From Patescibacteria group bacterium (GTDB lineage Bacteria > Patescibacteriota > Microgenomatia > UBA1400 > CG1-02-47-37), in the NCBI GenBank assembly GCA_034718535.1, contig JAYEMX010000044.1:1-36971 (forward strand): a DNA stretch of 36,971 bases, in the 5' to 3' direction. The position numbers and the translations under genes are program-made. The notes beneath the pieces were generated by a model that did not search any database, was not told the origin of the DNA, and saw only the letters and a program-made list of their open reading frames with translations. The stretch's first letter is position 1; each line of letters opens with the position of its first letter. Of this stretch, positions 2,226-21,188 are shown one piece after another.

Positions 2226-2231
2226 CTAATA

Positions 2232-3092: not shown

Positions 3093-3101
3093 GACCCTCC
3101 T

Positions 3102-3680: not shown

Positions 3681-3684
3681 CTTT

Positions 3685-4584: not shown

Positions 4585-4604
4585 TTAATAGCTCCTATTT
4601 TAAA

Positions 4605-5492
4605 TCAAGCCAAGTTTAAGGCTTTTTGATAGATTTCTTTTTTAGTTTTATTTTTAAAGATAAAACCAAAGATAATTATTCTTAAAAAAGCCCCGATTTT
4701 TAAAAGTCCCCTTAAAATAAAATATTTACAGGAAGAATAGTGTTTTTTATAAAGATATTTTAAACCTTTGAATTCACCTAAAATAGCTCCTTTACTTGAA
4801 CCGGATGCTTGACCTAAATGAATTAATTTAGGTTTAGAAAAATAATCCAGTTTGATATTATTTTGGCTAGCTCGAAGACAAAAGTCAACATCTTCGCCAT
4901 ACATGAAAATTTTATGATCTAAACCATCTAGTTTTTTATAAACCTCTTGCTTAATTATTAAAGCAGTGCCTCCCAACCAACCGGGATGCTGGTCTTTTTT
5001 GAAAAAAGTAATATTTCTTTGTTGATAAGGTTTAAAAAACCAATTAATAATTGGTAAATCATCAATAAATAACATCCAGGCGGTTAATCGATAAAGATTG
5101 GGAAGAAAACCTCCTTGAGGCTGAATAGAGCCATCTGAATTTAAAAGCTGGCAAGAAGCAATATCAGAATTGTTGGCCAAAACTAAATCATAAAGCTGTC
5201 GAATGGTGTTTTTTTTAAGTAAAGTGTCTGAATTTAAAAGCCAGATATACTTACCTTTGCTTTTTTTGAAACCAAAGTTATTGCCTTTGGCAAAACCCAA
5301 GTTTCCTCCAGAAGAATAAACTTTTACCCATGGATGTTTTTTCTTTAAATAATTGATTGAACCATCTTCAGAGCCATTATCAACCAAAATAACTTCTTTT
5401 TTTAATTTATCGGTTGAGTTTTTAATTGTTTTTAAACAATCAGAAGTAATTTTTTTAGTTTTATAGTTAATAATAATAATTGATAAATCCAT
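4605..5492 (-). CDS. family 2 glycosyltransferase (tandem paralog of 3685-4584)
   Basis: MDLSIIIINYKTK...VDNGSEDGS...GFAKGNN...LLNSDT...MYGEDVDF. The N-terminus is nearly identical to that of its neighbour. Confidence 0.8.
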   Translation of the reverse strand: MDLSIIIINYKTKKITSDCLKTIKNSTDKLKKEVILVDNGSEDGSINYLKKKHPWVKVYSSGGNLGFAKGNNFGFKKSKGKYIWLLNSDTLLKKNTIRQLYDLVLANNSDIASCQLLNSDGSIQPQGGFLPNLYRLTAWMLFIDDLPIINWFFKPYQQRNITFFKKDQHPGWLGGTALIIKQEVYKKLDGLDHKIFMYGEDVDFCLRASQNNIKLDYFSKPKLIHLGQASGSSKGAILGEFKGLKYLYKKHYSSCKYFILRGLLKIGAFLRIIIFGFIFKNKTKKEIYQKALNLA

Positions 5493-5494
5493 AA

Positions 5495-6346
5495 TTATTT
5501 TTTTATTTGTATTTTTATTGCTTGTAAAAGAGATATTAAAAAGACTCCCTGACTACGAATATTAGTAAAAATTAGATGATATGGCAACCAAATAAAGTGT
5601 TGTAATAATTTAAATCCGCGAATATTTTTCCAAATAAATAAAAGTTGATTTCTGGCTGACATGATTTTAATTTTTCTTTTGCCAAATATCGTAATGTTAG
5701 TGGTTTCATGATTGTGAAATACTTGAGAACGGGGCTCAAACATAATTTTATAGCCATATTTTTCTCTGGCTATCCAAGAAAGGTCAATATCTTCCCAATA
5801 AGCGGGTTTATAAAGTAAATCAAATCCCCCTACTTGTAAAAACTTCTTTTTATCAAGCATCATTGAACCACCGGAAGCCCAACAGTTTTTAGTTGGTTGG
5901 TTTAGATTAGTTATTTTGACGGCTTGATGAATAAATAAACCACGTTTAAATTGGCATTTATTTTTGCCCGAGATTTCTCTTTTACCATTTACAGTTTGGA
6001 TTTCTAAACAATTGACGGCAAACATTTTCGGATCATTAAAGTGTTTAATTAAGGGTTTTAAAAAATTAAGCTTGGGAACTACATCAGAATTAAGTAAAAA
6101 AACCAAGTTATTTTTGGCGGCTTTAATACCAATATTACAAGTTTGGGCAAATCTCTGGTTAACTTTGTTACTAATAACTTTAACTTGGGAAAAGTGTTTT
6201 TTTAAATAAGCAGTAGTATCATCCGGAGAGCAATCGTCAACTACAATAATTTCACTATTTTTTGGACAAGCTTTTATAATTTTAGGCAAGTGTTTAATTA
6301 AAGGGTTTTTTTTGTAGTTGGGAATAACAAAAGAGACTGGTTTCAT
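5495..6346 (-). CDS. family 2 glycosyltransferase
   Basis: VSFVIPNYK...VVDDCSPDDT...LLNSDV...YWEDIDLS. It overlaps the upstream gene by 4 nt (ATGA). Confidence 0.75.
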   Translation of the reverse strand: MKPVSFVIPNYKKNPLIKHLPKIIKACPKNSEIIVVDDCSPDDTTAYLKKHFSQVKVISNKVNQRFAQTCNIGIKAAKNNLVFLLNSDVVPKLNFLKPLIKHFNDPKMFAVNCLEIQTVNGKREISGKNKCQFKRGLFIHQAVKITNLNQPTKNCWASGGSMMLDKKKFLQVGGFDLLYKPAYWEDIDLSWIAREKYGYKIMFEPRSQVFHNHETTNITIFGKRKIKIMSARNQLLFIWKNIRGFKLLQHFIWLPYHLIFTNIRSQGVFLISLLQAIKIQIKK

Positions 6347-7266
6347 ATTAATCTGCCTTTACCCAAGCGATTAAGGAAAAAGTCTTTGACTGCTTGTTTT
6401 TCTCCTTCTCTACCATTTATTATTTGTTTTAAAGCTTGACGAAGAAGAGCAAACTTTGTTCTTAGTGAAGCATAATTCATGCCAAATATTAACCGGTTTC
6501 TAGTGATGTAATAGTCATGGAGTTTAGATCCCGAACCGCTACTGGCCGAACTTTTGTGGTAAATAAAACTTTTAGGTTGGTAAAGAATTTTAAAACCATT
6601 TTTAAAAGCTCGATAAGAAAAGTCGGCATCTTCAAAATAAAGAAAATATTTTGGGTCAAGCAAACCAATTGTCTCAAAAACTTGTTTTTTGACTAAAAGA
6701 CAGCAGGCATTAGCAAAATCAATTGATCTAGATTGGTCGTGCTGACCTTTATCCACTTGATTAACACCAGTGTGAACAGCAAGAACATTGTCCCAATCAA
6801 AATAACCACCGGCATACCAAATAACTTTACCCAGCTCTGATTTTTTATATCTATCTTTATGGTATTCATAACCTTTAGCAAAATAAATTTTAGGAACCAC
6901 CAAATCAGCTCCATCTTTGGCTGATTTTAAAAGGTGTTTTAAAAAATATCTATCTACTTCAACATCATTATTAATAAGTAAAAACAAGTCGAATTTTTTC
7001 TTTAAACCTCTTTTTATGCCCAAGTTATTGCCTGCGGCAAAGCCGGTATTTTGATTAACGGTAATTAGTTGAATTGATCTTCTTTTTTTAAGGGCGGTTT
7101 TTAGGGTTCCGTCTGGTACCGGACTGTTATCAATTACCGTAATATGGTTAGTATAGCCAGAGGGAACCAAAGACTGCTTTAGAGAGTCAAGGGTTTCCAG
7201 TGTCATCTTGGGGTTTTGATACTCCAAGATAATAGTACAGACTTTTTTGATTTTCTTTTTAACCAT
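6343..7266 (-). CDS. family 2 glycosyltransferase
   Basis: VIDNSP...GFAAGNNLG...LINNDV...YFEDADFSYR, a GT2 pattern. Confidence 0.8.
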   Translation of the reverse strand: MVKKKIKKVCTIILEYQNPKMTLETLDSLKQSLVPSGYTNHITVIDNSPVPDGTLKTALKKRRSIQLITVNQNTGFAAGNNLGIKRGLKKKFDLFLLINNDVEVDRYFLKHLLKSAKDGADLVVPKIYFAKGYEYHKDRYKKSELGKVIWYAGGYFDWDNVLAVHTGVNQVDKGQHDQSRSIDFANACCLLVKKQVFETIGLLDPKYFLYFEDADFSYRAFKNGFKILYQPKSFIYHKSSASSGSGSKLHDYYITRNRLIFGMNYASLRTKFALLRQALKQIINGREGEKQAVKDFFLNRLGKGRLI

Positions 7267-7310
7267 AAAAGGATGTGAGTATTATATCAAAAACTGAGTA
7301 GTAGTTAGGA

Positions 7311-8492
7311 TTAATGGTTAATTTTCTTTTCTTGATAGTATTTCTTGTTTTTTAATTTCTCTGGTAATAAGTTTTTGTTTTTATCCGGATATATTTCATA
7401 ACCTTTGCCATAGTTTAGGTTTTTCATGAGTTTTGTCGGAGCATTACGGAGATGTAGAGGGATTGGCAGGTTACCATGTTTTTTAATATCTGCTTGGGCA
7501 GCACGAAGAGCATTATAACTAGAGCGGTCTTTTTTAGCTTTGGAAAGATAGACCACACCATGGGCCAAATTAATGGCACATTCAGGTAAGCCAATAACTT
7601 GACAGGCTTTGAAAACCTCGTTGGCAACCACTAAAGCCGTAGGTTGAGCCATGCCAATATCTTCTGAAGAAAAAATAACCATTCTGCGGGCAATAAATAG
7701 AGGATCTTCGCCTGATTCAAGCATGCGTGACATGTAGTATAAGGCGGCATCCGGGTTGCTCGCCCTCATAGATTTAATAAATGCACTGATAGTGTTGTAA
7801 TGTTGATCTCCGGTTTTATCATAACGAAGAAACTTGCTTTGAAGAGCTAGCTTTAAATTTTTAAGAGTGATGGTTTTGTATAAATTGGCGGTGATTTCTA
7901 AAAGATTTAAGGCTTGACGAGCGTCACCATCACTAAACTTAATTAAAAAGTTTTTAGCAGATAAAGAAATTGAATTAATCTTCAAAAAAGACTGGCCTTT
8001 TTCGATTATTTTAATGAGTTCTTTGTTATTGTAAGGTTCGAGAATAAAAACCTGACAACGGGAAAGCAAGGGGCTAATAACCGAAAAGCTGGGGTTTTCA
8101 GTAGTGGCGCCGATTAAAATAATGGTGCCATTTTCAACATAAGGGAGCAAAAAATCTTGTTGAGCTTTATTAAAACGGTGAATTTCGTCTAGGAAAAGAA
8201 TGGTTTTTTGTTTTAAAAGAGGAGCTTGGGCTTTTTTAATAATAGCTTTAACATCGGCTTTGCCAGAAGATACGGCCGAAAGATGGAAAAATTGAGATTT
8301 GGTTTCAGAGGCTATAATTTTGCTTAAAGTGGTTTTGCCGGAACCCGGAGGACCCCAAAATATCATGGAGTGAATTTGGTCTTTTTTTATTGCCAATTTA
8401 ATTGGCTTGTTTGAGCCAGTTAAATGAGATTGACCAATAAATTCTTTTAGAGATTTTGGTCGAATTAAATCCGGTAACGGAGGTTTAGCCAT
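7311..8492 (-). CDS. rarA: replication-associated recombination protein A (AAA+ ATPase)
   Basis: LIRPKSLKEFIGQ.HL...FWGPPGSGKTT (Walker A), LFLDEIHRFNK (Walker B / sensor), and the MgsA C-terminal block DQHYN.ISAFIKS.R.S.PDAALYY..RML..GEDP.FIARR. Confidence 0.9.
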   Translation of the reverse strand: MAKPPLPDLIRPKSLKEFIGQSHLTGSNKPIKLAIKKDQIHSMIFWGPPGSGKTTLSKIIASETKSQFFHLSAVSSGKADVKAIIKKAQAPLLKQKTILFLDEIHRFNKAQQDFLLPYVENGTIILIGATTENPSFSVISPLLSRCQVFILEPYNNKELIKIIEKGQSFLKINSISLSAKNFLIKFSDGDARQALNLLEITANLYKTITLKNLKLALQSKFLRYDKTGDQHYNTISAFIKSMRASNPDAALYYMSRMLESGEDPLFIARRMVIFSSEDIGMAQPTALVVANEVFKACQVIGLPECAINLAHGVVYLSKAKKDRSSYNALRAAQADIKKHGNLPIPLHLRNAPTKLMKNLNYGKGYEIYPDKNKNLLPEKLKNKKYYQEKKINH

Positions 8493-8715: not shown

Positions 8716-9722
8716 TTATCCAGTTATTTTTTCCCAAGGGAATTCGGGGCGGCCAAAATGACCATAGGTGGCTGTTTTTTGATAAATGGGTTGCCTGAGA
8801 TTTAAAGTTTTTAAAATATTAGGAACAGACATATTTAAAAGTTTTTTGGCAAAATCTTTAATAATTGAGGGTTTTTTCTTTTGAGTATTAAAAGTATTAA
8901 TGGCATAGGCTACTGGTTTTGGCTTACCAATAACATAGGCAACTTGAACCTCGCAGCGATCAGCTAAATTATTAGCTACAATATTTTTAGCTACATATCT
9001 GGCACCATAAGCCCCGCTACGATCAACCTTGGTAGGACATTTGCCCGAAAAACAACCACCACCGACCCTGGCCATACCGCCATAAGAGTCAACTACAATT
9101 TTTCTAAAACAGGTAAAACCGCATGTTGATATAGATCTTGCTTGACTTGAAAAGGTTTAATTTTAGAGTTATGGGGTTTGGCCAAAATAATTTTTTTAAT
9201 TTTATCGGGTTGATAATTTTTGTAGTCAACAACAACTTGGCTTTTACCGTCAGGTCTAAGATAAGGTAAAACCTTTTCTTGAAGTTGGTCCATTTTTTTA
9301 GTTAAGCTATGGGCCAGCATAATCGGTAATGGCATTAATTGTTTAGTTTCATTACAAGCATAGCCAAACATCATGCCTTGATCTCCGGCACCACCAGAAT
9401 TAACCCCTTGGGCAATATCCGAAGACTGTTGGTGAACTAGAACTTGAATATCAAGAGTATGATAGTCAAATTGATAGATTGAAGAATTATACTGAAGTTT
9501 TTTTAGTAATTTTTTAGTAATTTTTTGATAATCAATTTGAGCCTTTGTTTTGATTTCTCCGGCTATAATAACTTTATTGCTGGTAACCAAACACTCTATT
9601 CCGGCATGAGAATAAGGATCTTGTTTTAAGGCTGAATCTAAAACAGCATCGGATATTTGATCACAGATTTTATCTGGGTGACCGGCACAAACTGATTCAG
9701 ATGAAAAGGTGGAATAAAACAT
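8716..9722 (-). pseudogene. metK: S-adenosylmethionine synthetase, disrupted (about 30-codon internal deletion plus frameshift)
   Basis: The N-terminal piece (likely ATG at 9722) reads MFYSTFSSESVCAGHPDKICDQISDAVLD...GAGDQGMMFGYA...RPDGKSQV. It stops at ..[10 protein letters not shown]. The C-terminal piece, in another frame, reads [44 protein letters not shown]...YGHFGR. The canonical block ..INPTGRFVIGGPxGDxGLTG.. is missing at the junction (9076-9116). Confidence 0.8.
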
Positions 9723-9765
9723 AATGTCTCCTAAAAAATATCCCTCCATAAAAAGAGGGGTTAAT

Positions 9766-9924
9766 AAAAAAAAGCACTCCAATGAGTGCAGTTATTTTGC
9801 TCGATAAATATCGAACCTAATCTATCCCTTTTGGGGTTGGATTGAGCACCGTGCCCCGATTAAATCGGGATCGGATTGCTGAACGGATCAAAGAGCCAAA
9901 TCTCTAGCCGTTTCTCTTGATTTA
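9766..9924 (-). promoter_or_regulatory. SAM-I (S-box) riboswitch with intrinsic-terminator expression platform
   Basis: The minus strand reads AUCAAGAGAAACGGCUAGAGAUUUGGCUCUUUGAUCCGUUCAGCAAUCCGAUCCCGAUUUAAUCGGGGCACGGUGCUCAAUCCAACCCCAAAAGGGAUAGAUU. It matches the S-box core elements (AUCAAGAG P1, a GA-rich P2 with UGA, GCAAyC, GGUGCUnAAUyCC, AGAU closing). A GCACUCAUUGGAGUGC hairpin plus U8 follows (9766-9789), directly upstream of metK. Confidence 0.8.
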
Positions 9925-9937
9925 TTAAATTGTCAAG

Positions 9938-10705
9938 TTATTTTTGGTTTAGAGTGCCACTAACAACTAATTGATATTTATTTTTAAGTCTTTTTTTAGC
10001 CCAGTAACGATTAGAGCGATATAAACTGTGAAAAGTGCCGGCATCTGACCAATAACCTTTTAGTTCTTCCCATTCAAGCTGACCTTTTTTTAGATAAGTA
10101 TTATTAATATCGGTAACCTCAAATTCACCCCTAGTCGATGGTTTTAATTTTTTAATTATATTAAAAACCTGATTGTCAAAAATATAAAGTCCTGTTACCG
10201 CATATGGAGAGACAGGGGTTTTTGGTTTTTCGATAATTTCTTTGATTTTTTTGGGATTATTTTGAAAAAATTTTGGATTACCAAACCTTTCCGGATCAGG
10301 AACTTTTTTTAAGAAAAGGCAGGCTCCTTTTTTAAAGTTTTTAATCGGCTTTTTTATATCAGCATCAGTGGTATTATCGCCTAAGATTACAGTAATTGGG
10401 CCTCCATCGGCAAAATCTTCGGCATAGCTAATAGCATTAGCAATTCCTTTCGAGCCCTCTTCTTGATAAGCATATTCTAGGTGCTCTATTCCAAGATCTT
10501 TCCCGTTTTTTAAAACGTTGATAAATTGACCAGAATGAACATCGCCAGTAACAATAAGAATATTTTTTATGCCGGCATTTACCATGGTTTTAATTGGATA
10601 GTAAATCATTGGCTGGTCATAAATTGGTAAAAGGTGTTTATTGGTGGGAAGAGTAAGCGGGTAAAGTCGTGAACCTTTGCCTCCAGCTAAAATAATACCT
10701 TTCAT
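9938..10705 (-). CDS. rfbA: glucose-1-phosphate thymidylyl/nucleotidyltransferase (short form)
   Basis: MKGIILAGGKGSRLYPLT...NKHLLPIYDQPMIYYPI...ILGDN, the sugar-1-phosphate nucleotidyltransferase signature. Confidence 0.75.
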   Translation of the reverse strand: MKGIILAGGKGSRLYPLTLPTNKHLLPIYDQPMIYYPIKTMVNAGIKNILIVTGDVHSGQFINVLKNGKDLGIEHLEYAYQEEGSKGIANAISYAEDFADGGPITVILGDNTTDADIKKPIKNFKKGACLFLKKVPDPERFGNPKFFQNNPKKIKEIIEKPKTPVSPYAVTGLYIFDNQVFNIIKKLKPSTRGEFEVTDINNTYLKKGQLEWEELKGYWSDAGTFHSLYRSNRYWAKKRLKNKYQLVVSGTLNQK

Positions 10706-10713
10706 AGTCTCCT

Positions 10714-10962
10714 TTAAGCTCTGAGGCTTAAGAAAATTAATATAACGATTGAGAGTAAGCTAATAGTTAAATATTCAAGAATAACCGGTAAATAAAGGGT
10801 TTTATCTTTGACGTGAATTAAGATTCCCCAAAGAAAATAACTTAAGCCTATGATTATTGAAGTAATAATACGAAAGTTTGGAAATTGAAAAAAGATTAAA
10901 CCTAAAAACCCCAAGATTATAGCTAAGGTTAAATAACTGTATGCTGGTTTGATTTTTTTCAT
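10714..10962 (-). CDS. small integral membrane protein
   Basis: 82 aa with three hydrophobic helices and no recognisable motif. It is tightly packed within the operon. Confidence 0.4.
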   Translation of the reverse strand: MKKIKPAYSYLTLAIILGFLGLIFFQFPNFRIITSIIIGLSYFLWGILIHVKDKTLYLPVILEYLTISLLSIVILIFLSLRA

Positions 10963-10963
10963 T

Positions 10964-11797
10964 TTATAAAACTAAACCCGGTTGAACAATTATCAACAGG
11001 AGTAATAGTATACCTAAAAATATTAAATGAGCCAAGCCTCGACCAGATAGTCTGATAATTTTCTTTTTGGCAATGATGAGGCTATCGATAGCGATAATCA
11101 ATAATAAAATTAAGGTTAAACTAATTGACATGGATTTGGTTAAATCAAATGTACTTAATAAAGGCGGAGTGGTAATTTCGGCCAGAACCGCTTCCGCCGG
11201 TTGATCAATTTTACTTGTTTGAGATAAGCTGGTATCAGTTGTAGTTCCAAACATTTGAACCACTAAAGTGGTTTCTTGGCCTTGAAAAGTATCGTGAATA
11301 ACCACAATCCCAATATCTCTATAACGACTAGATAAAATATTATCTCTGTGAGTAGGTGAGTTCATCCAAGCTTTGACAACCGAATTTGAATCTTGAAAAT
11401 CTCTGGCTAAATTTTCACCGGCATATAAATATTTATAGTCGGCTTCTTTGAAAAAACTCCAAGGAGTTTTACCTTCCGGTGAAGTGTGAGCCCAATAGTT
11501 TTTGTTAATCATGTCAGCGGCTTTTTTAGTAGCGGCTTCGACTAAAATTGGATTAAGTTTAAGCTCTCCTAAGCCATTTTCCTTACGTTTTTGATTGGTT
11601 AGTTCAATTAATTCCTGAGTGGTAACTGAAGAAGCTAGACCTAAAACTCCGGGAATAGATTTACCAATAAGGCTAAAAATGATTTGACTGGCCATGATAA
11701 TTATTATGAAAATACTTAAAGAAGAGGCGTGAAGAGATTTAGCTTTATAATTATTCGAAGATCTGGGGGTAAATAAATGGGATAGGGTTTTAATCAT
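10964..11797 (-). CDS. CAP/SCP (YkwD-like) domain protein, membrane anchored
   Basis: N-terminal TM, then NQKRKENGLGELKLN..L..AA..KA.DM....YWAHTSP.G..PW......Y.YAGENLA......VV.AWMNSP.HR.NIL, and C-terminal TM segments. Confidence 0.7.
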   Translation of the reverse strand: MIKTLSHLFTPRSSNNYKAKSLHASSLSIFIIIIMASQIIFSLIGKSIPGVLGLASSVTTQELIELTNQKRKENGLGELKLNPILVEAATKKAADMINKNYWAHTSPEGKTPWSFFKEADYKYLYAGENLARDFQDSNSVVKAWMNSPTHRDNILSSRYRDIGIVVIHDTFQGQETTLVVQMFGTTTDTSLSQTSKIDQPAEAVLAEITTPPLLSTFDLTKSMSISLTLILLLIIAIDSLIIAKKKIIRLSGRGLAHLIFLGILLLLLIIVQPGLVL

Positions 11798-11806
11798 GAA
11801 GTTATT

Positions 11807-12808
11807 TTACCTGACGCGACGGCGATAAAACAAGAAGAGAAGTAAAATAAGTAGAATCAGCAATAAAAGCCAAAGCCATGAAAAAGCGGTTTTTTGGGTG
11901 CCTAAAATTTCCGGGTTACTAGCGGTAATATTTTTTTGATTGATTTCAGCCGAAGAAGTAGCTTTTCCCAAAACTTCAAATCCCGTTGCCGGACCGGGAG
12001 CAATAAAAGCACCTAAAACTCCTCCGGTAGTAGCACTAACTTCATTTGAAGCACTACTGGAACCACAATCAGTTACCGCATAAACAATAAAATAGTAGGT
12101 GGTTCCCGAGGATAATCCGGAAACAGTGTAGTTAGTTACATTTCCTATATTATTAGCTCCGTAAATATACGATCCGGGGTTTAAACCATAAGAAATAGAA
12201 TAGTGAGTAACTGTTTCCGTAGGTGCTGTCCAGCTTAAACTAATCACACTGGAACTGACGGTGGTGGCAGTTAAGTTTGTTGGCGCTGAAGGAACTACAC
12301 ATGTTGCGGGACTGAGGCTAGGGGGCGGTACTAACTCAAAACCTAAATCTAAATTAAAAGCTGTGATGATCTCTCTATAATTATTATCTGCTGATTCCTG
12401 CATGGTAACAGTAAAGTTATAATCTTGACTTTCTCCGGTAGCTATATTTGATAATTTTAAAAATCCATAATTATTGAAATTAGTTAAATTATCTTCATAA
12501 ATATTTATTGTCTCCCCGCTTTTTTTGATACTTATGGTTAAAACATCACTTAGGCCGTTTGTAGGAACTAAATCAACTGTCTCGATAGCAAAATCAGCAT
12601 CCTGATCATAATTGTTAACCCCTTGGATGGTTTTAGTAATATTCCAACCGGGATAAATATTAAGTTCTGAAAATAAAGGACCGGTGGGAGAAGGATTACA
12701 ACCATCACCATCACAGACTATACTTAAATCTTGAGCTAATACCGGTTTTCTGCCAAAGGCTAAAATATTAAGTAAAAGTATGAAGAAAATAAATATCTTT
12801 TTTTTCAT
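11807..12808 (-). CDS. secreted Fn3-domain protein with C-terminal hydrophobic anchor and basic tail
   Basis: Signal peptide, then PSAPTNLTATTVSSSVISLSWTAP...YSISYG...YTVSGLSSGTTYYFIVYAV (Fn3). The protein ends WLWLLLLILLILLLFLFYRRRVR. Confidence 0.6.
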   Translation of the reverse strand: MKKKIFIFFILLLNILAFGRKPVLAQDLSIVCDGDGCNPSPTGPLFSELNIYPGWNITKTIQGVNNYDQDADFAIETVDLVPTNGLSDVLTISIKKSGETINIYEDNLTNFNNYGFLKLSNIATGESQDYNFTVTMQESADNNYREIITAFNLDLGFELVPPPSLSPATCVVPSAPTNLTATTVSSSVISLSWTAPTETVTHYSISYGLNPGSYIYGANNIGNVTNYTVSGLSSGTTYYFIVYAVTDCGSSSASNEVSATTGGVLGAFIAPGPATGFEVLGKATSSAEINQKNITASNPEILGTQKTAFSWLWLLLLILLILLLFLFYRRRVR

Positions 12809-12812
12809 AAAA

Positions 12813-15536
12813 TTAGTAATTTAAGGTTTTTTCTAAAATTGTATCGGGCATATTTGTGCCAGTTAAAGTAATTTTTAAATTGATAGTTTCTATACTTTGA
12901 TGATATACGCATACTTTTCCCAATGAAGAACAAATAGCAAGTTTTAGATCATCCCGAGTAATAATATTTTGTCCTTTAATTTCAATCTTACCTATAATAC
13001 CTTGTGGTCCTTGATCAGAATCATAGGTAATTTCATAGTTTAAATCATCCCAATCATTAATATTAAAAGTGATAAAACCAACTGATTTTTTATCCTGAGA
13101 TAAAGAAAAATTAACTTTTAGTTCATTATCAGAGCGATTTTTTCCTCCCGGTGTACCTTGCTCTATTGCTTCTTTATCCCAATATTCAACGGTAGTTAAA
13201 GCATCTTCGCAATCATGCCAATTACTTGCAATAGTTCCGTCGTCAGGGTCTTCGTTTCTTTCCATTGACCACTTATTGTCATCATTTATACCGGCTGGCC
13301 AAGCCTGGTTTTTCCAAGCAGTATCGATAATTTCATCAAAAGTATTTTTTAATATTAATTCTTCTCCGTCATTGTCAAGATTAAGACTGGCTGTTACCCA
13401 ATCCGGAATAACATTAATATTTGAGTCGTCTTTGTTGGAATTAGAAATCAAAAAGTATCCATTGGCGGGAATTATACTGAGGTTTGGAATAGTTAAATCA
13501 ACTCCCAAATTTCCACCATTAGTTATTTGCCAGTTGGAGAGATCAATATCTTGATTAGTAGTATTTCTTAATTCTATCCATTCGTCAGTGGTTGATTTTG
13601 TCGACCCCATCCACATTAGTTCGTTAATGACCACATCTCCCGAGAATATTTCTTCCGATGGTTCTTTTTCTAAAGTTGTTGCGAAAACAATATCAGATAG
13701 GTCTGAACAATTTACGGACGCATCGCAAGTTTTAATTGCAAAACAATAACCTGTTTCGGGGGTCAGTCCGGTAATTTCAAAATATTCAGATTCATCGGGA
13801 AATTTTGGAACCGGAGGCTTGTTAACTTTATTAGCTAAATCCCAATCGTTAATATCGCAAACTCCGGAAAATTCTTCCCAGTAACGAATGTCATAAGAAG
13901 TAAGCCTGGTTGAATTTGTATCTATAATATCCGCCGGAGCTGTCCAAGATAAAATAACAGAAGTATCATCAATGTCATCATCAGAATATATTTCTAAATC
14001 AATAATATTTTCAGGCGATTCATTGTCTAAATGGACTTTGATTAAATTAGGTGTTTCTATATTGCCAGCTTCATCAATTGAACGATAATAAATATTATAT
14101 TTGCCAGAAATGCTAGTATAGTTAATTGTAAAAAACTCTTCTGTTTCTTCTAAATAAATCCAATCGTCTGGATTTATTTCAATGCCATCATTTTGTATTT
14201 GATATTGTCTAGTAGCTCCTGGTTCATTACTTGAGAGATAAAATTCGGTAAATTCGTTGGCTACAACTTCCGTAGTGGTTACTTTATCTAAATAAACCCA
14301 GGATTGACTATAATAATCCAAATCCATACCATTTGTGTTGCCCGCGTAAAAAGATATCCCCAAAGAATCATCTTCAAACTGAGTTAAATCAATATATGCT
14401 TGTTGCCAGCCAGTAGAATAAGTTTCAGCTTCATTGTCATAGTAACCGGTATCGTATAAATCGTCTTGATAATAATCCACATCAAAAGCATTGAGATTAA
14501 AAACTTGTTGACCGTTAATAACTGCACTAAATCCAGGTTCATCCCAAGGATAAGAATCATATGTGTAAAAGTTGTACCAAAAGCTTAAATTTTTAGCTCT
14601 CGAAGAAATGCTTTGACCTAAACCGTTTAACCAAATTTCATTTCCCGGATCAGTTGTTCTGCCAATTTTCGCATTTTGAGTGCCTTGTTTTGCGGTTGAC
14701 TCAAATTCGCTACTTAATCTTTCCGTATCCCCTCGTTCCGTCCAGTCGGCAATTGAACCACCTGTTTCAAAACCACTATTTTCTATTTTTTCGTCAACAA
14801 CTAAGCCATTGTCAACTGTTAAAGTTGTTTCCGGCACCATCCAGTCATCAGCCATAGAAATAGTGATTCCGGAAATAGTTATAGTGTCGGAAAAATAAGC
14901 GTTAGTCGGTGTAATTTGAAAAAAGCTAATTCCAAATAACCAAAAAATTAATATTTTAAGTTTATTTTTCGAGCTCTTTTTTTTATTTTTTTTAACTTGT
15001 AAATACTTTTTTTCCACTTCTTTTTCAATTGTTTTTTTGATATTTAAAATCTCACTGAGAATAATTAAGACTGCCGGTAAAACAACCAAAAGCCCAAAAC
15101 CCAAGGGTTTTTTTGTCCAAACAGATAAATAACCTAAAAGGGGTAAGGAAAAAATAACTTTTCCCTTTATTTGCGAGGGTTTAATTTCAGCTATATCTTG
15201 AGAACTATTAGCATCACCTTTGGTTGTATAAATAGTTTTATTGTCTTGGCTATTAATTTCGATTAACCGGTGAGTAATAGAAATATTGGGATTATCTTTA
15301 GAGGTGTATGTGATAATGTCATCTTTTTTTAAAATACTTGGATTAATTTTTTGAGAAATAATAACTGATCCTGTTTTGATCGCAGGTTCCATTGAGCCGG
15401 ACATTACTCTTAAAACTTGAAATTTTTTAACCGGATTAAAAGCGGTAAAAATTAAAAGTAAAACAACTAAAGTTAAAGCCACGGTTAAAATCGACTGAAA
15501 AATATTAGCTATTTTTTTAAGTTTTTTATTAATCAT
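12813..15536 (-). CDS. SipW-type (S26B) signal peptidase fused to a TasA-type leader and a large CBM-like/Fn3/lamin-tail-domain surface protein
   Basis: Residues about 45-130 read VMSGSMEP...ITHRL...KGDANS (S26B Ser/His motifs). A TM follows, then KKSSKNKLKILIFWLFGISFFQITPTNAYFSDTITISG (AYFSD is encoded at 14886-14900). Next come NSGFETGG (CBM-like), ILSWTAP...YDIRY (Fn3) and VVINELMWMG...DEWIELRN...LSNWQI...GYFLI (LTD, roughly 13140-13650). Confidence 0.7.
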   Translation of the reverse strand: MINKKLKKIANIFQSILTVALTLVVLLLIFTAFNPVKKFQVLRVMSGSMEPAIKTGSVIISQKINPSILKKDDIITYTSKDNPNISITHRLIEINSQDNKTIYTTKGDANSSQDIAEIKPSQIKGKVIFSLPLLGYLSVWTKKPLGFGLLVVLPAVLIILSEILNIKKTIEKEVEKKYLQVKKNKKKSSKNKLKILIFWLFGISFFQITPTNAYFSDTITISGITISMADDWMVPETTLTVDNGLVVDEKIENSGFETGGSIADWTERGDTERLSSEFESTAKQGTQNAKIGRTTDPGNEIWLNGLGQSISSRAKNLSFWYNFYTYDSYPWDEPGFSAVINGQQVFNLNAFDVDYYQDDLYDTGYYDNEAETYSTGWQQAYIDLTQFEDDSLGISFYAGNTNGMDLDYYSQSWVYLDKVTTTEVVANEFTEFYLSSNEPGATRQYQIQNDGIEINPDDWIYLEETEEFFTINYTSISGKYNIYYRSIDEAGNIETPNLIKVHLDNESPENIIDLEIYSDDDIDDTSVILSWTAPADIIDTNSTRLTSYDIRYWEEFSGVCDINDWDLANKVNKPPVPKFPDESEYFEITGLTPETGYCFAIKTCDASVNCSDLSDIVFATTLEKEPSEEIFSGDVVINELMWMGSTKSTTDEWIELRNTTNQDIDLSNWQITNGGNLGVDLTIPNLSIIPANGYFLISNSNKDDSNINVIPDWVTASLNLDNDGEELILKNTFDEIIDTAWKNQAWPAGINDDNKWSMERNEDPDDGTIASNWHDCEDALTTVEYWDKEAIEQGTPGGKNRSDNELKVNFSLSQDKKSVGFITFNINDWDDLNYEITYDSDQGPQGIIGKIEIKGQNIITRDDLKLAICSSLGKVCVYHQSIETINLKITLTGTNMPDTILEKTLNY

Positions 15537-15618
15537 AATTTAAAACCTTTATCGATTGCTTAAATCGGATTTATAAAAACCCTTTTTAAGCAATCTAAAA
15601 AGCATTAACTTGTTTAAG

Positions 15619-16230
15619 TTATTGAACTTGTTCTCCAATAATTTCCCAAGTTACACCAGTTAAACTCTTGCCTTGAATATCATTTCCGGCATCACTTTTC
15701 ACTCGTGCTTCTATAGTGTAGTTATGAGAATTAGCTACACCATCTGAACTAGCTTCGACTGTAATTCCAGTTGTGTTAGAAATGGGTCTTAATTCACTGT
15801 TCCACCATTCTAATGTTTGCCAACCCAAAGAGTAATTACCATCATTCAAATCGGTAATTTTAATTTCAATTTGATCTTTTAAAAGAGACCAATCATCTCC
15901 ATTTAGACTGGTTGCAGCAGTTAAACGAGTATAGGGTCTGAGGTCAATAGGACTACCGCTTATATTTCTGAGCCAAATATTACCACTGGCTTCAAAGTCT
16001 GGATAAAGACCCGGAATAGTTAAATTCAAGTCAATCAAATCAGTGCTATTTGTATCATAGCCAGAATCAGTATTATCGGTTGTATGATTTGATTCCAAAT
16101 CCGCAGTTCCCATAGCTATGGTAACTCCGGTAACAGTAACCGTATCGTTAAAATAAGCGATTGTGGCACTGGTTACACCGGCAATTGTTAAAGCAATCAT
16201 GCTTAAACTTATAATTATTTTTTTTGTCAT
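15619..16230 (-). CDS. TasA/camelysin-like secreted protein with SipW-dependent-type signal peptide
   Basis: MTKKIIISLSMIALTIAGVTSATIAYFNDTVTVTGVTIAMGTADLE, that is, the A-x-F-(S/N)-D motif followed by GT.DL, as in TasA-family leaders. Confidence 0.65.
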   Translation of the reverse strand: MTKKIIISLSMIALTIAGVTSATIAYFNDTVTVTGVTIAMGTADLESNHTTDNTDSGYDTNSTDLIDLNLTIPGLYPDFEASGNIWLRNISGSPIDLRPYTRLTAATSLNGDDWSLLKDQIEIKITDLNDGNYSLGWQTLEWWNSELRPISNTTGITVEASSDGVANSHNYTIEARVKSDAGNDIQGKSLTGVTWEIIGEQVQ

Positions 16231-16290
16231 TTATTTTCACCTTCTTTCAAATAAAACTAAATTTTTAATAAAAGTGGGCAGGTTTTTGGT

Positions 16291-16860
16291 TTAAATTATC
16301 TGAATGCCGTCAAAAATTAAATCAAAGATAATACTACCGTCTTTAATTTCATTGCCCGCATTTTCAGATATACTAAAATTAACCACCCATGGACCGGCTT
16401 CGGCATCTTTAGCTAAAGTTGGTTCTAGGTAAGTGCTGGAATTTTCTCTCCATACTCTCAGGCTATATTTGCCTGTTGAATGACTTCCGTCACTCCAAGT
16501 AATTTCCATAAAAACATCGTCCCATAAGTCTGCAATGTCATAACTGGTAATATCAACAGTTGGGAGAATTTTTAAAGTAATGGGTGAACTGCTTTCGTTT
16601 TTTAGATAAATCCAATAAGAGTCTTCCCAGCCCGGATAAAGATTAGTCCATCTTTCCGGAAATGCCGGAGTGGTTGAGTCGTCCCAAGCACTTTTTTGAC
16701 CATCTTTGTCAGTGTCAATGGCAATTTTTAAATCAGCATTACCTGTAGCAAAAGTGTTAGGTCCACTGGTTGCTTTGTCGGAAAAAGCAGCGTAAACAGC
16801 ACCAGCGACTAAACTTATAATGGTAGTAATAGCAAAAATACTTAAAAGTATTTTTTTCAT
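16291..16860 (-). CDS. TasA/camelysin-like secreted protein with SipW-dependent-type signal peptide
   Basis: MKKILLSIFAITTIISLVAGAVYAAFSDKATSGPNTFATGNADLKI, plus LYPGW...YL.N.S..PI, which it shares with its neighbour paralog. Confidence 0.65.
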   Translation of the reverse strand: MKKILLSIFAITTIISLVAGAVYAAFSDKATSGPNTFATGNADLKIAIDTDKDGQKSAWDDSTTPAFPERWTNLYPGWEDSYWIYLKNESSSPITLKILPTVDITSYDIADLWDDVFMEITWSDGSHSTGKYSLRVWRENSSTYLEPTLAKDAEAGPWVVNFSISENAGNEIKDGSIIFDLIFDGIQII

Positions 16861-16881: not shown

Positions 16882-16905
16882 AAAAAACCGACCAAATGGT
16901 CGGTT
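16882..16905 (-). terminator. hairpin plus U-run between the RAYT-like gene and the tasA-like operon
   Basis: The minus strand reads AACCGACCAUUUGGUCGGUU followed by UUUUUUG. A second, weaker hairpin with U7 lies at 16947-16971. Confidence 0.45.
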
Positions 16906-17031
16906 AAGATTTATTTATAGTATTTGTTTATTAACTGTATTCATTTAAAAAAACCCAGTTTTTTTCCTGGGCAGGTAAAATTATTTAATACTATAACTTA
17001 TGCTATGTCAATAACCTAGAGTATTTGATTA

Positions 17032-17058
17032 TATATTTAAGGTTCGGAACCTTAAATA
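17032..17058. repeat. 27-nt palindromic element, copy 1 (REP-like hairpin)
   Basis: TATATTTAAGGTTCGGAACCTTAAATA is identical to 17492-17518. It self-pairs (TTTAAGGTT / AACCTTAAA, loop CGG) and overlaps the stop codon of the RAYT-like ORF. Confidence 0.9.
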
Positions 17059-17534
17059 TTTTCTAAAATTAAAGTTTTGATTTGATTAGTTTCTTTTTCT
17101 TTCATATTAGCTTCTACATACTTTTGATAATTTTGTTGAAATTTAAATATATATTCTGGGTGTAACCATTCTGGTAATTTAACTTTGTTAATAAAGGCTG
17201 GGTAAGAAGAATGAGTGTAGTTTGAAAGTTTCTTGGTTAATTTTTGGGGATTTTGGTGAATATATTTAGAAAGATAGAGAAGTTGCTTGTCTGAATCTAT
17301 GGTAACATTTTTAAATTTGCTTTCAAAAAGTGTACCAGTATGTTTATATTTATATTGAAAATACATGGCGTAAGTAATAGTTAATCGTCTCATTAAATTA
17401 GAAATATTAGTTTTTTTATCAGCTTCAGGGAGTTGTTTTAAAATTAAATGGAAGTGATTAGGCATTAAACAATAAGCAACTAAATGAACAGTATATTTAA
17501 GGTTCGGAACCTTAAATAGATTTGGAAACAACAA
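17052..17534 (-). mobile_element. IS200/IS605-like Y1 (RAYT / COG1943-type) transposase homolog, N-terminally truncated
   Basis: VHLVAYCLMPNHFHLILK (HuH motif), ...MRRLT..Y...F..KY...G.LFE..FK...ID.D..LLYLSKYIHQNP (the Tyr-helix region). About 45 N-terminal residues of the family are absent. The track start is a TTG, and codons 7-15 are encoded by the palindrome itself. Confidence 0.65.
17492..17518. repeat. 27-nt palindromic element, copy 2
   Basis: Identical to 17032-17058. It lies inside the 5' end of the RAYT-like ORF. Confidence 0.9.
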
Positions 17535-17587
17535 AACATTTTGGCGAGGTTAAGCGCCAAAGTGTTAAGTTTTTGTTTATTGACTAA

Positions 17588-17911
17588 CTAAGCTGCAGTA
17601 GTTGCCTTGGTTGGAGGAGTGGCTGCAGATGCAGGAGTGTCAGTAGCTGGGTGACTAACAGGAGTTACGGGAGTATCTGTTGTTGGGGTTGGGGTTGGAG
17701 TAACTGGTGTGTCTGTTGCAGGAACATCAGGGGTTGGAGTTGGAGTAACTGGTGTGTCTCCTGGTAAGGTGGGTTCTGCTGGTACATCAGCTGGAGTTAC
17801 GGGAGTATCTGTTGTTGGGGTTGGGGTTGGAGTAACTGGTGTGTCTGTTGCAGGAACATCAGGGGTTGGAGTTGGAGTAACTGGTGTTACTGGGTTTTGT
17901 TGATCGTCCAT
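17588..17911 (-). CDS. Pro/Thr-rich repeat protein (low complexity, no signal peptide)
   Basis: 107 aa made of (TPVTPTPTP / DVPATD) units, with a 132-nt tandem duplication at the nucleotide level (about 17661-17890). The antisense ORF 17709-17903 is a shadow. Confidence 0.45.
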   Translation of the reverse strand: MDDQQNPVTPVTPTPTPDVPATDTPVTPTPTPTTDTPVTPADVPAEPTLPGDTPVTPTPTPDVPATDTPVTPTPTPTTDTPVTPVSHPATDTPASAATPPTKATTAA

Positions 17912-17963
17912 TTAAAAACTCACCTCCTTTGTAATATAACTACTATACTTTGAAAACTCAGGA

Positions 17964-18197
17964 TTATGCAAGTTTAAAATCGATCGGTATATATAAGGCT
18001 CCGCGAGTAACGCCTAGTTTTTTAATAAAACCTTTTTTGATTAGATGTTTAAGGTCGTAATGAATGCTTCTTTTGGAAGTGCTTATAAAACGACGTTTTA
18101 TAAAATCAAAAGAAACTATTTTATGAGTAGTAATAACTCTAAGAATTTCTCTTCTTCTAAGCAGTAAAGTATCCGGGTCAGGCAGAATAATAGACAT
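17964..18197 (-). CDS. small winged-helix (DeoR/Fic-C-terminal-like) DNA-binding protein
   Basis: ...FDFIKRRFISTSKRSIHYDLKHLIKKGFIKKLGVTRGALY, an HTH followed by a wing. Confidence 0.5.
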   Translation of the reverse strand: MSIILPDPDTLLLRRREILRVITTHKIVSFDFIKRRFISTSKRSIHYDLKHLIKKGFIKKLGVTRGALYIPIDFKLA

Positions 18198-19864: not shown

Positions 19865-20228
19865 TTAACCGATAACATTTTTACCTTCTATGACTATTCT
19901 TTCCACCTTACCATACAGTTTCCAACCCTTAAACGGTGTCCAGCCACTTGTGCTTTGATGCTTTTTTAAATTCTTTTAAGTTCTTGCCATTGGTGCCAAA
20001 ATGAAATCCAATCATACACTTTGACTTTTTTTCAGCCAGTTTGATTTTATCTAATAATCGTTTATAACTGACTGTAGGAATTGGGTTATTAGGCATATCT
20101 AATATCATGCCAAATCCACCAGCCACAGCTGCCTCAGAACCAGTGGTAAAATCTTCTTTTTCAATCGCCCCTGGTTCTCTTAAATGCACATGAACATCTA
20201 TTAAAGGCGGCCATCTTAATTTTGTCAT
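19865..20228 (-). pseudogene. pyrC: dihydroorotase remnant (N-terminal ~95 codons plus C-terminal ~20 codons, middle deleted, frames differ)
   Basis: The N-terminal fragment reads [14 protein letters not shown]......[20 protein letters not shown]. From 19927-19865, in another frame, my own translation gives GWKLYGKVERIVIEGKNVIG*, a typical amidohydrolase C-terminus. About 300 codons of a normal DHOase are absent. Confidence 0.7.
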
Positions 20229-20231
20229 ACT

Positions 20232-21188
20232 TTAGCCTTTTAAAATCGCTTCTAAAAGCGCCATCCTTACATAAAGACCTGATCTCATTTGCGGAAAATA
20301 TTTGGCTCGTTTATCGTCATCGACTTCATACATAATTTCCCCGACCCTAGGCAATGGATGCATTATCATAGCTTTTTTCTTCATCGTGTTTACCATATGC
20401 CTGGTTAAGATAAACTTACCTTTTAACCTTTCATACTCATCCAGCTTACCAGCTTTTTCAAACCATTCCTTTTGCACTCTTGTCATATACACCACATCTG
20501 CTTTAGGTAATACTTTAGATAAGTTGTCGGTTTCTGAAATTTTTACTTTTTTACTCAAATCCTTGACATATTTTCTTGGAGCCATTAACTCTTTAGGTGA
20601 TACAAAAATAAATTTATTTTTCCTTCCGGTCACTGTTAATACTTTTGCCAATGACTTAATCGTTCTACCATACAACAAATCACCTACCATTGCCACGTTT
20701 AAACCATCCATTTTCTTATGATGATTATAAATAGTATACAAATCCAATAATGCCTGAGTAGGATGTTCTTTGGTCCCAGAACCTCCATTTATTATTGGCA
20801 CATTAGATATTGAAGCTGCCACCTCAGACGAATTATTCTCTGGGTGTCTAATCACCACTGCATCTGCTCCGGTAGTTTGATGAATACTTTTAATCGTATC
20901 CTCTAAAGACTCTCCTTTAGCTACGCTAGAATATTGAGTCATTCCATGAATCGCTATTGTATAGGCTCCTAATCTTCGTGCTGCTGCTTCAAATGAGGAA
21001 AAAGTTCTGGTTGAGGGTTGATAAAATAAAATCGCTACTGTCATGCCTTTTAATGGTTCATAAACATTATGTGTCTCTACATTTTTTTTCATTACATCAA
21101 CTTTTTTAAACAACTCTTTAATCTGTGATTTTCTTTTAATTTGATCCACAGTAATATATGATTGTTTATAAATCCATGATTTTTTCAT
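20232..21188 (-). CDS. pyrB: aspartate carbamoyltransferase catalytic subunit
   Basis: FYQPSTRTFSSFE, GTKEHPTQALLD, and IMHPLPR...E, the ATCase signatures. Confidence 0.9.
   Translation of the reverse strand: MKKSWIYKQSYITVDQIKRKSQIKELFKKVDVMKKNVETHNVYEPLKGMTVAILFYQPSTRTFSSFEAAARRLGAYTIAIHGMTQYSSVAKGESLEDTIKSIHQTTGADAVVIRHPENNSSEVAASISNVPIINGGSGTKEHPTQALLDLYTIYNHHKKMDGLNVAMVGDLLYGRTIKSLAKVLTVTGRKNKFIFVSPKELMAPRKYVKDLSKKVKISETDNLSKVLPKADVVYMTRVQKEWFEKAGKLDEYERLKGKFILTRHMVNTMKKKAMIMHPLPRVGEIMYEVDDDKRAKYFPQMRSGLYVRMALLEAILKG

Follow-up and report, generated by a model that had tools for sequence, protein, structure and literature searches.

The window analysed here comprises 36,971 nucleotides of contig JAYEMX010000044.1 (GenBank assembly GCA_034718535.1, positions 1 to 36,971 of the forward strand), from a Patescibacteria group bacterium, a member of the candidate phyla radiation (CPR). 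Its G+C content is about 33%, and its closest relatives bear the names Beckwithbacteria, Microgenomates, Woesebacteria, Gottesmanbacteria, Shapirobacteria and 'Patescibacteria group'. The list of open reading frames (ORFs) in the window contains seven minus-strand genes in series, with intergenic gaps of 1–82 bp (Table 1). The first two encode small subunits; the third, the subject of this analysis, encodes a SipW-type signal peptidase joined through a Lys-rich linker and a predicted internal signal peptide to a large cargo. The ORF of this fusion is uninterrupted, with 0 internal stops, and 694 residues lie beyond the predicted cleavage site, close to the 690 or so first estimated. The two subunit genes, each with a leader of its own, stand directly upstream of the peptidase, and a third leader lies on the peptidase's own polypeptide, an arrangement that recurs in the related loci L001, L002, L003 and L012. 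The original prediction, made from the letters of the window, had described such an in-frame fusion; its coordinates and motif positions (SGSMEP, THR, GDAN, and AYFSD at 14886–14900, residues 213–217) all hold, and the in-frame continuation from peptidase to cargo has now been found in three CPR loci that share synteny, in one closed genome and in 122 or more proteins.

At its N terminus, the fusion protein carries the S26B/SipW-like peptidase that had been read from its motifs. The profile TIGR02228 (sigpep_I_arch) scores 111.7 bits against a cut-off of 51.85 and aligns residues 7–163 with profile positions 1–155 of 158. Pfam Peptidase_S26 reaches 19.2 bits against 22.9 on the fusion protein; the Pfam model suits this subtype poorly. 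The equivalog model for Bacillus SipW, NF046067, gives 113.3 bits, below its cut-off of 190, and by this NCBI criterion the peptidase is SipW-like in type and context, not a SipW ortholog. The motifs SGSMEP (residue 46), THR (residue 88) and GDAN (residue 107) contain the catalytic Ser48 (15393–15395), His89 (15270–15272), a His and not a Lys at the place of the general base, and, in GDAN..D, Asp108 and Asp114. These four residues are kept in 45–48 of about 48 aligned peptidase-bearing sequences, which points to an active-type enzyme and not a decayed domain. A first transmembrane segment (TM1, approximately residues 13–33) lies inside the peptidase domain, which is modelled with confidence by AlphaFold2 (AF2), and the same model shows a helix across residues 144–179. 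The second segment, TM2, would be the C-terminal anchor helix typical of SipW and would bring the chain back to the cytoplasm.

Between TM2 and the cargo, the Lys-rich linker appears to serve SipW as its tail and an internal signal peptide as its n-region, with predicted cleavage between Ala213 and Tyr214 (between bases 14898 and 14897). The hydrophobic h-region of this third segment is short: in the set of at least 122 proteins that share the layout of three hydrophobic segments, it has a median length of 15 residues (12 in the window) and is followed by a 7-residue c-region, against 19 residues for TM1 and 18 for TM2. Such dimensions are what one would expect in a signal peptide that can be cleaved, and not in a stable anchor. 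Around the site, Thr is conserved at −3, Ala, Ser or Gly at −1, Phe at +2 and Asp at +4, with YFSD at +1 to +4. A hidden Markov model (HMM) made from the N-terminal 34 residues of ten cargo homologs that are unfused matches residues 196–218 of the window protein at 20.0 bits, and its best whole-sequence score in 2000 shuffles is 7.3 bits. In a BLASTP alignment with the unfused protein P0011, residue 195 of the window protein, inside the h-region, pairs with P0011 residue 8, and the match continues through the C terminus at 40% identity. By these comparisons the internal segment is homologous to the N-terminal signal peptides of unfused orthologs, so the claim of a third leader stands as far as descent is concerned, and it is unlikely that the AYFSD segment is an ordinary transmembrane helix. 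Because split orthologs, the leader HMM, the P0011 alignment and that of the pair P0040 and P0049, described below, agree, the segment seems to be a former N-terminal signal peptide made internal by loss of the sipW stop codon, and there is a strong comparative case for a genuine internal cleavage site.

The positive-inside rule serves as the basis for predicting membrane topology. Applied to the fusion protein, it places the N terminus inside, the catalytic domain outside, the linker inside and everything past residue 206 outside, so that the TNA/Y bond and the active site would lie on the same side of the membrane.

The fusion is genuine, is shared by relatives and is no artefact of the window. 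A word-indexed search returned 85 relatives, mostly peptidase–leader–cargo fusions, and an exhaustive search with the first 260 residues gave 92 cluster representatives (50% identity level) at E <1e-30; most of the best 150 matches are much longer than stand-alone SipW and are aligned through the leader. One of the proteins with the three-segment layout is encoded in a closed Woesebacteria genome. Constant across the fusions is the stretch from the peptidase through linker and leader up to about the 17th mature residue (YFSD..G.T.S.A..W), and the cargo behind it is of three types: a lamin tail domain (LTD) alone, in proteins of about 460–550 residues; beta-sandwich, Fn3 and LTD modules together, in proteins of 800–1170 residues; and a TasA-like N-terminal region with an LTD (P0038, Peptidase_M73 at 26.8 bits). 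The gene order is likewise shared by L001 (a Microgenomates metagenome-assembled genome (MAG)), L002 (the closed Woesebacteria genome GW2011_GWF1_31_35, CP011214) and L003: small subunit or subunits, fusion, usually an Fn3 protein, CAP protein, small membrane protein and sugar nucleotidyltransferase. In a distant CPR locus, L012, the fusion stands behind three TasA/SpaA-like genes. Six non-CPR loci were recovered, in MAGs of Firmicutes, Bacteroidota and Acholeplasmatales, and none of them has a cargo; their peptidase ORFs have 172–254 residues, apart from one of 393 residues with an N-terminal multi-transmembrane extension.

A stop between the two parts in related genomes had been named in the original prediction as a result that would speak against the fusion. 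The survey of orthologous loci finds the fusion kept in relatives, and also finds such stops in two of them. In L011, a 218-residue sipW ends in ...KKELKSKKT, just past TM2 and the Lys-rich tail, and a 938-residue cargo (MRRKIFKS...SGAWFTSS) begins 15 bp further on, with downstream synteny as in the window. In L010, where sipW ends in ...AAIRKKKK, the cargo gene (MKKLFF...TFAYFSD) starts in an overlap with the sipW stop codon (ATGA). The parts in both loci are proper genes, each with its own start codon and n-region, which argues for evolutionary fusion and fission, not for an error in the window. The fused protein P0040 and the unfused P0049 are 82% identical over 776 residues, in an alignment that begins exactly at the predicted cleavage site. 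That fused and split states alternate between such close relatives argues that the two arrangements are functionally equivalent.

Several further observations concern the junction and the spread of the fusion. The linker DNA at 14955–15044 is A-rich, with homopolymer runs of A7–A8, and the split junction of L010 also falls in an A-run (GAAGAAGAAAAAATGAAAAAA); slippage in these runs could switch a locus between the fused and split states, and it may be the evolutionary route to the fusion or even a mechanism of phase variation. In a Parcubacteria-like group (for example Kaiserbacteria; L012 at 1571–7554, P0061–P0077), the linker between TM2 and leader is 60–100 residues long, the cargo opens with a TasA-like GN.F.A..LDF motif, and the three TasA/SpaA-like proteins encoded upstream have 445–548 residues. 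P0083 and P0085 are another SipW fusion, of 519 residues, in which a large C-terminal domain comes straight after an S24/S26 peptidase domain, with neither TM2 nor linker nor leader; one of their clusters holds 1616 member sequences. They probably come from non-CPR bacteria, and they suggest that further kinds of SipW fusion exist. Typical CPR operons also occur under non-CPR taxon names, in L003 (DATKVU010000026, labelled Clostridia), whose gene order matches the window down to the RmlA-like gene, and in P0010 (labelled Bathyarchaeia); both contigs look like mis-binned CPR.

The cargo is a chain of beta-rich modules. Its full-length AF2 model, with an overall predicted local distance difference test (pLDDT) score of 84.9 for the 907 residues, shows confident beta-sandwiches throughout the cargo and is poor at residues 180–229 only. 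Both the Fn3 and the lamin tail domain of the original prediction are found by Pfam above threshold, and its CBM-like domain (residues approximately 233–420) has no Pfam support: residues 233–520 give weak Big_13 and OmpL47-barrel matches only, and Pfam scans of isolated cargo segments outside the Fn3 domain and LTD returned no significant family. A Foldseek search with the full model retrieved generic multi-Ig/Fn3/MAM ectodomains only and gave no functional lead for the cargo. The LTD is the one module common to most fusions, the minimal ones of approximately 460–550 residues included, and is annotated in most homologs; in L002 and L003 it is the only cargo module. At the front of the predicted mature cargo stands a TasA-type strand, which may act as a donor strand, without the TasA-like body that would follow it in a subunit. 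The TapA model TIGR04087 (YqxM_for_SipW) gives 12.8 bits on the cargo against a cut-off of 80, and we propose the cargo as a functional analogue of TapA, not a homologue.

Table 1 Features of the operon around the peptidase–cargo fusion. Residue numbers refer to the protein named in the row or, for the parts of the fusion, to the 907-residue fusion protein.
Feature	Position	Strand	Residues or length	Basis
Terminator-like hairpins (two), 5′ of the subunit 1 gene	16886-16972	-		Promoter/terminator scan
Subunit 1 gene	16291-16860	-	189 aa	
Subunit 2 gene	15619-16230	-	203 aa	
Fusion gene (peptidase, linker, internal signal peptide, cargo)	12813-15536	-	907 aa	
SipW/archaeal-type signal peptidase I domain	15048-15518	-	7-163	
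TM2, LGFGLLVVLPAVLIILSEIL	15045-15104	-	145-164	Hydropathy
Lys-rich linker, predicted cytoplasmic (13 Lys, 3 Glu)	14955-15044	-	165-194	Sequence
Internal signal peptide, predicted (h-region 195-206, 12 aa; c-region QITPTNA, 207-213)	14898-14954	-	195-213	Leader HMM, BLASTP
Predicted mature cargo N terminus, YFSDTITISGITISMADDW	14841-14897	-	214-232	Similarity to subunit N termini
Cargo beta-sandwich modules, jelly-roll/MAM-like and Ig-like	13977-14840	-	233-520	AF2, Foldseek
Cargo Fn3 domain	13725-13976	-	521-604	Pfam fn3 (PF00041), 31 bits, cut-off 25
Lamin tail domain	13320-13643	-	632-739	Pfam LTD (PF00932), 55.7 bits, cut-off 34.3
C-terminal beta-rich domain	12816-13319	-	740-907	AF2, confident; no Pfam match
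Fn3 protein gene, putative fibre anchor	11807-12808	-	333 aa	
TasA-like body of the Fn3 protein	12326-12733	-	26-161	hhalign
CAP/YkwD-family gene	10964-11797	-	277 aa	
Small polytopic membrane protein gene	10714-10962	-	82 aa	
Seventh gene of the series	9938-10705	-	255 aa	

The two small genes upstream encode subunits that begin with SipW-type leaders, as first proposed: the model TIGR04088 for SipW-dependent signal peptides scores 24.2 bits on subunit 1 and 21.9 bits on subunit 2, against a cut-off of 19. Cleavage is predicted at VYA24/A25FSD in subunit 1, ahead of a beta-sandwich body, and at TIA25/Y26FND in subunit 2, whose mature N terminus, YFNDTVTVTGVTIAMGTADL, is cargo-like. The mature N termini would thus read AFSD, YFND and, for the cargo, YFSD, with conserved positions, and all three fit both the donor-strand signature of the TasA superfamily (bioRxiv 10.64898/2026.01.04.697558) and residues 28–38 of TasA (PMC9674648). 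The two subunits are paralogous (subunit 2 against the subunit-1 family in hhalign, probability 99.6%, E 3e-24), and 38 of the 44 members of the subunit-1 family match Peptidase_M73 (PF12389) at E<=0.01, the best at E 8e-9. AF2 models subunit 1 as an all-beta sandwich (pLDDT 83.9); in Foldseek its best match is FimA (E 6.5e-4), with AbpA (7ueg) fourth (E 3e-3) and a Sulfolobus thread (7pnb) at E 1.4e-2. A profile of the subunit family searched against the sequences of the PDB gave nothing meaningful (top match, coronavirus spike, E >0.6). On these sequence comparisons the subunits are best placed as a divergent, pilin-like branch of the TasA/camelysin family. Shine–Dalgarno sequences are strong for the subunit genes (GGGGGTGA for subunit 1) and weak for the fusion gene, which fits the proposed stoichiometry of abundant subunits and a scarce tip.

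Downstream of the fusion, the operon continues into an Fn3 protein and a CAP protein, again as first described. The Fn3 protein has an ordinary signal peptide (..VLA/QDLSI), a TasA-like body, an Fn3 domain (residues 174–259, 56.3 bits), a C-terminal transmembrane helix and an RRRVR tail; it has neither the SipW leader nor the N-terminal strand of approximately 17 residues. Its relation to the subunits emerges from a profile: four N-terminal sequences of the Fn3 protein, compared by hhalign with the subunit family, gave a probability of 97.0% (E 1e-10) over subunit residues 42–187 only, and a single sequence of the Fn3 protein compared with the same profile gave a weak match (probability 7%). 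The gene also follows the fusion in L001, L003 and L011. A strand-less TasA-like body with a transmembrane anchor lends support to the original idea that the operon may encode a complete fibre or adhesin apparatus. The CAP protein (Pfam CAP, 66.5 bits) is secreted, with a C-terminal membrane region; its gene is separated from the one upstream by 9 bp and is syntenic in L002, L003 and L011. An 82-residue membrane protein gene, with flanking gaps of 1 bp and 8 bp, is kept after the CAP gene in L003 and L011, and its product may be part of the system. CAP/YkwD proteins with a C-terminal membrane region accompany the operon consistently, and the closed Woesebacteria genome has two CAP copies around the fusion (L002 at 6545–7069 and 9430–10389).

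In Bacillus subtilis, the donor strand of TasA consists of residues 28–38, the first 11 after SipW cleavage, and the N terminus of TapA resembles it and is predicted to complement TasA (PMC9674648). TapA donates its N terminus and nucleates fibres, is of low abundance, as is SipW, and the stop and start codons of tapA and sipW overlap (PMC10151520). Besides a type I signal peptidase (SPase I), loci of the TasA superfamily commonly encode tip proteins together with membrane anchors, and a survey of the superfamily lists phyla that do not include CPR/Patescibacteria (bioRxiv 10.64898/2026.01.04.697558).

The best model, which we regard as fairly probable, is that SipW cuts its own fused substrate and thereby frees a donor-strand LTD protein, analogous to TapA, for an anchored donor-strand fibre. 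The operon would encode, for a CPR (Microgenomates-type) bacterium, a donor-strand fibre system of the TasA superfamily in which sipW became translationally fused to the downstream substrate gene through loss of its stop codon. TM1 would insert with the N terminus inside, leaving the catalytic domain outside the membrane; TM2 would return the chain to the cytoplasm; the Lys-rich tail would remain cytoplasmic and serve as the n-region of a signal peptide; and the short third hydrophobic segment would export everything downstream. A SipW active site, its own or that of a neighbouring molecule, would then cut after Thr-Asn-Ala213. This cut would leave a three-helix peptidase in the membrane and a free protein of 694 residues whose new N terminus, YFSD..., is a candidate TasA-type donor strand followed by beta-sandwich, Fn3 domain and LTD. 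As a donor-only protein, like Bacillus TapA, the cargo would insert its strand into a subunit, nucleate or cap the distal end and display the LTD, for which an adhesive role may be envisaged. The two abundant small subunits, each donor and acceptor, would polymerise by donor-strand exchange, and the Fn3 protein, acceptor-only, would take the last strand and tether the fibre to the membrane by its transmembrane helix. Topology, cleavage, the cleaving agent (in cis or in trans), fibre formation, polarity and an adhesive LTD are all inferred here from sequence, and it is domain content alone that assigns the donor and acceptor parts and the direction of the fibre.

A bolder version, possible but doubtful in our estimate, is an obligate self-processing enzyme–substrate polyprotein: each SipW would be born with one tip protein and cut it in cis, an active peptidase would mark a freshly seeded, LTD-tipped fibre, and it would then process shaft subunits until the strand-less anchor captures the fibre. 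If true, such self-processing would be an unrecognised, machinery-free coupling of secretion, stoichiometry and spatial control in fibre assembly.

A group of results weighs against the model of cleavage and donor-strand assembly. On the isolated internal leader, TIGR04088 gives 13.1 bits, below its cut-off of 19, so that the third leader falls short of the SipW-dependent family by its own profile, and a leader HMM from the subunit-1 family alone scores 3.6 bits on the window protein, not significant. In the AF2 model residues 180–229 have pLDDT <50 and the cleavage site is not docked in the catalytic centre; with confidence so low there, the model is mute on cis versus trans cleavage. Peptidase_M73 (PF12389) stays below its threshold of 22.5 bits on both subunits of the window (21.7 and 15.8 bits) and aligns to profile positions 3–50 of 196 only. 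The structural matches of subunit 1 to donor-strand pilin folds are weak (E approximately 1e-3, TM-score 0.3–0.4), and TasA is not in its Foldseek top 50. At the matching position L002 has no gene for the Fn3 anchor, which is thus not a universal component.

An alternative is a third segment (TM3) that stays uncleaved as a stable helix, giving a three-helix SipW that permanently bears an extracellular Fn3/LTD ectodomain; such an ectodomain might keep the peptidase near the wall, a host surface or the fibre base, or recruit substrates. Signal peptidases with extra domains are known, for example SPase I–DUF5305 (bioRxiv 10.64898/2026.01.04.697558), the AF2 model is neutral on docking, and TIGR04088 stays sub-threshold on the segment. 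We nevertheless consider it unlikely: the segment is homologous to the N-terminal signal peptides of unfused orthologs, which are necessarily cleaved or at least exported, its h-region is short, its c-region contains Pro and has conserved small residues at −3 and −1, and the YFSD donor-strand signature after the site is as conserved as in the free subunits, which would be hard to explain if that N terminus were never liberated. Cleavage by another enzyme, for instance a housekeeping SPase of the LepB type, would reduce the fusion to a device for co-expression or co-localisation, with SipW processing the small subunits and nothing else. The sequence is compatible with cleavage in trans by some peptidase, and although no other signal peptidase was seen in the window, it covers 37 kb of the genome only. 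In split orthologs, however, the same site adjoins a dedicated sipW gene. The site also keeps SipW-specific features, among them the Phe at P2′ that makes TasA-type sites poor LepB substrates (PMC10269814), and we rate this explanation as quite improbable.

The remaining explanations concern the reading of the DNA itself, either an indel in the A-rich linker that merged two genes by assembly or sequencing error, or translation of the cargo from an internal start, and together they are very improbable indeed. The junction does contain A7–A8 runs, split versions exist among relatives, and the window has other frameshift-like defects (a split metK and a truncated pyrC). Against an artefact stand the fused proteins themselves, at least 122 with differing linkers from independent assemblies, the closed genome CP011214 among them, and a simple frameshift in the split junctions would not yield the fused linkers; an assembly artefact is rejected on this breadth of conservation and on the closed genome. 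An internal start would have to use Val174, whose codon is an in-frame GTG and the only in-frame start-like codon of the window linker, yet no Shine–Dalgarno sequence precedes it, L001 and L002 have GTA in its place, and in L001 the stretch from TM2 to the cleavage site contains no start codon in frame. With no conserved internal start codon, this possibility is rejected as unlikely.

As in the B. subtilis operon tapA–sipW–tasA, a dedicated ER/archaeal-type signal peptidase is encoded with its substrates, the sites are cut (here by prediction) after Ala and before (A/Y)F(S/N)D with the residues that follow predicted to form the donor strand, and an accessory protein of low abundance, here predicted from the genes, has an N terminus that mimics the donor strand and is tightly coupled to the peptidase. 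The differences are the covalent fusion and the reversed order, with sipW first and the accessory protein second; a cargo with Fn3 and LTD modules that has no homology to TapA; a peptidase below the SipW equivalog cut-off (113 against 190); and two small, divergent subunits of approximately 190 residues, a strand-less TasA-like membrane anchor and a CPR host. The archaeal and bacterial AbpX, AbpA and Tafi loci of the TasA superfamily likewise combine major and minor subunits, a tip protein with a predicted donor-strand role, a membrane anchor and a dedicated SPase I, and SPase I fusion proteins occur in the superfamily. In the fusion of SPase I to DUF5305, already noted, the partner is an accessory subunit (bioRxiv 10.64898/2026.01.04.697558), unlike the present fusion, whose partner is a predicted substrate joined through its own signal peptide, with enzyme and scissile bond on one chain. 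Known, then, are TasA-superfamily fibres with a SipW-type peptidase, tips and anchors; apparently new here are the fusion of peptidase to substrate, the CPR host and the LTD.

Signal peptidase also cuts internal signal peptides in the structural polyproteins of flaviviruses and hepaciviruses. There, as is predicted here, a polytopic precursor has an internal hydrophobic segment that restarts translocation, a type I signal peptidase cuts on the trans side and an ectodomain is released; unlike the viral case, where the separate peptidase of the host acts, the peptidase here would be the N-terminal part of the same precursor, and the analogy is one of mechanism, with no homology. Chaperone–usher pili (Fim/Pap) share donor-strand exchange of Ig-like subunits, in a fibre of which one end bears an adhesin and the other a terminator or anchor, as inferred for the present fibre, and self-complemented FimA is the best Foldseek match of subunit 1. 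They differ in their chaperone and usher, for which the CPR operon has no counterpart, and in polarity, which is predicted to be opposite: the adhesin-like cargo would be donor-only and the anchor acceptor-only, whereas FimH itself can only accept a strand. Structurally the resemblance is weak (TM-score approximately 0.35–0.4) and probably convergent.

Signal peptidases are normally free-standing, and a widespread natural fusion of one to its own predicted substrate through the signal peptide of that substrate is an unusual architecture. In the searchable literature, which includes few subscription-journal papers, we found no signal peptidase fused to its own substrate in this way, no description of TasA/SipW-type systems in CPR bacteria and no LTD as a displayed module of such fibres; a literature search on LTD and competence was uninformative. 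The fusion would provide 'Rosetta-stone' evidence for the long-suspected association of SipW with a TapA-like nucleator of TasA-type fibres, and it would extend the donor-strand fibre systems of the TasA superfamily to CPR/Patescibacteria. The attached or episymbiotic lifestyle of CPR bacteria is thought to depend centrally on surface appendages, of which type IV pili alone have been discussed so far (PMC6744442); a second class of surface filament for attachment to hosts or substrates would follow if the model is true. The operon may then offer a compact four-gene model (two subunits, peptidase–tip fusion and anchor) for fibre seeding, extension and tethering without chaperones or ushers, in which natural fused and split variants are directly comparable. 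Database labels for these proteins read 'signal peptidase I' or 'lamin tail domain-containing protein' only, and are misleading for function prediction.

The two terminator-like hairpins 5′ of the subunit 1 gene probably terminate the preceding IS200-like gene and set the upstream boundary of the operon; the promoter/terminator scan found no more sites in this region than in shuffles, which makes the hairpin boundary merely plausible. The gene in question (17052–17534, minus strand), directly upstream of the fibre operon, is IS200/REP-associated tyrosine-transposase-like and N-terminally short, with Y1_Tnp at 37 bits and NF047646 at 46 bits against a cut-off of 80. Beyond it, a 107-residue ORF at 17588–17911 (minus strand) consists nearly entirely of Pro/Thr-rich repeats (PVTPTPTPDVPATDT...), is open on the opposite strand too, and falls together with a sharp local spike in GC skew (0.379 in 17001–18000). 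On the other side of the operon, metK (S-adenosylmethionine synthetase; 8716–9782, minus strand) lies in two ORFs of different frame, 9093–9782 (229 residues) and 8716–9075 (119 residues), with the shift just past ...VLPVLEKL and its stop, and is either a frameshifted pseudogene or the result of a sequencing indel. At 19929–20228 (minus strand), a 99-residue ORF with a dihydroorotase-like N terminus adjoins the aspartate carbamoyltransferase gene (20232–21188); it ends early with no continuation in any frame, and pyrC is apparently truncated.

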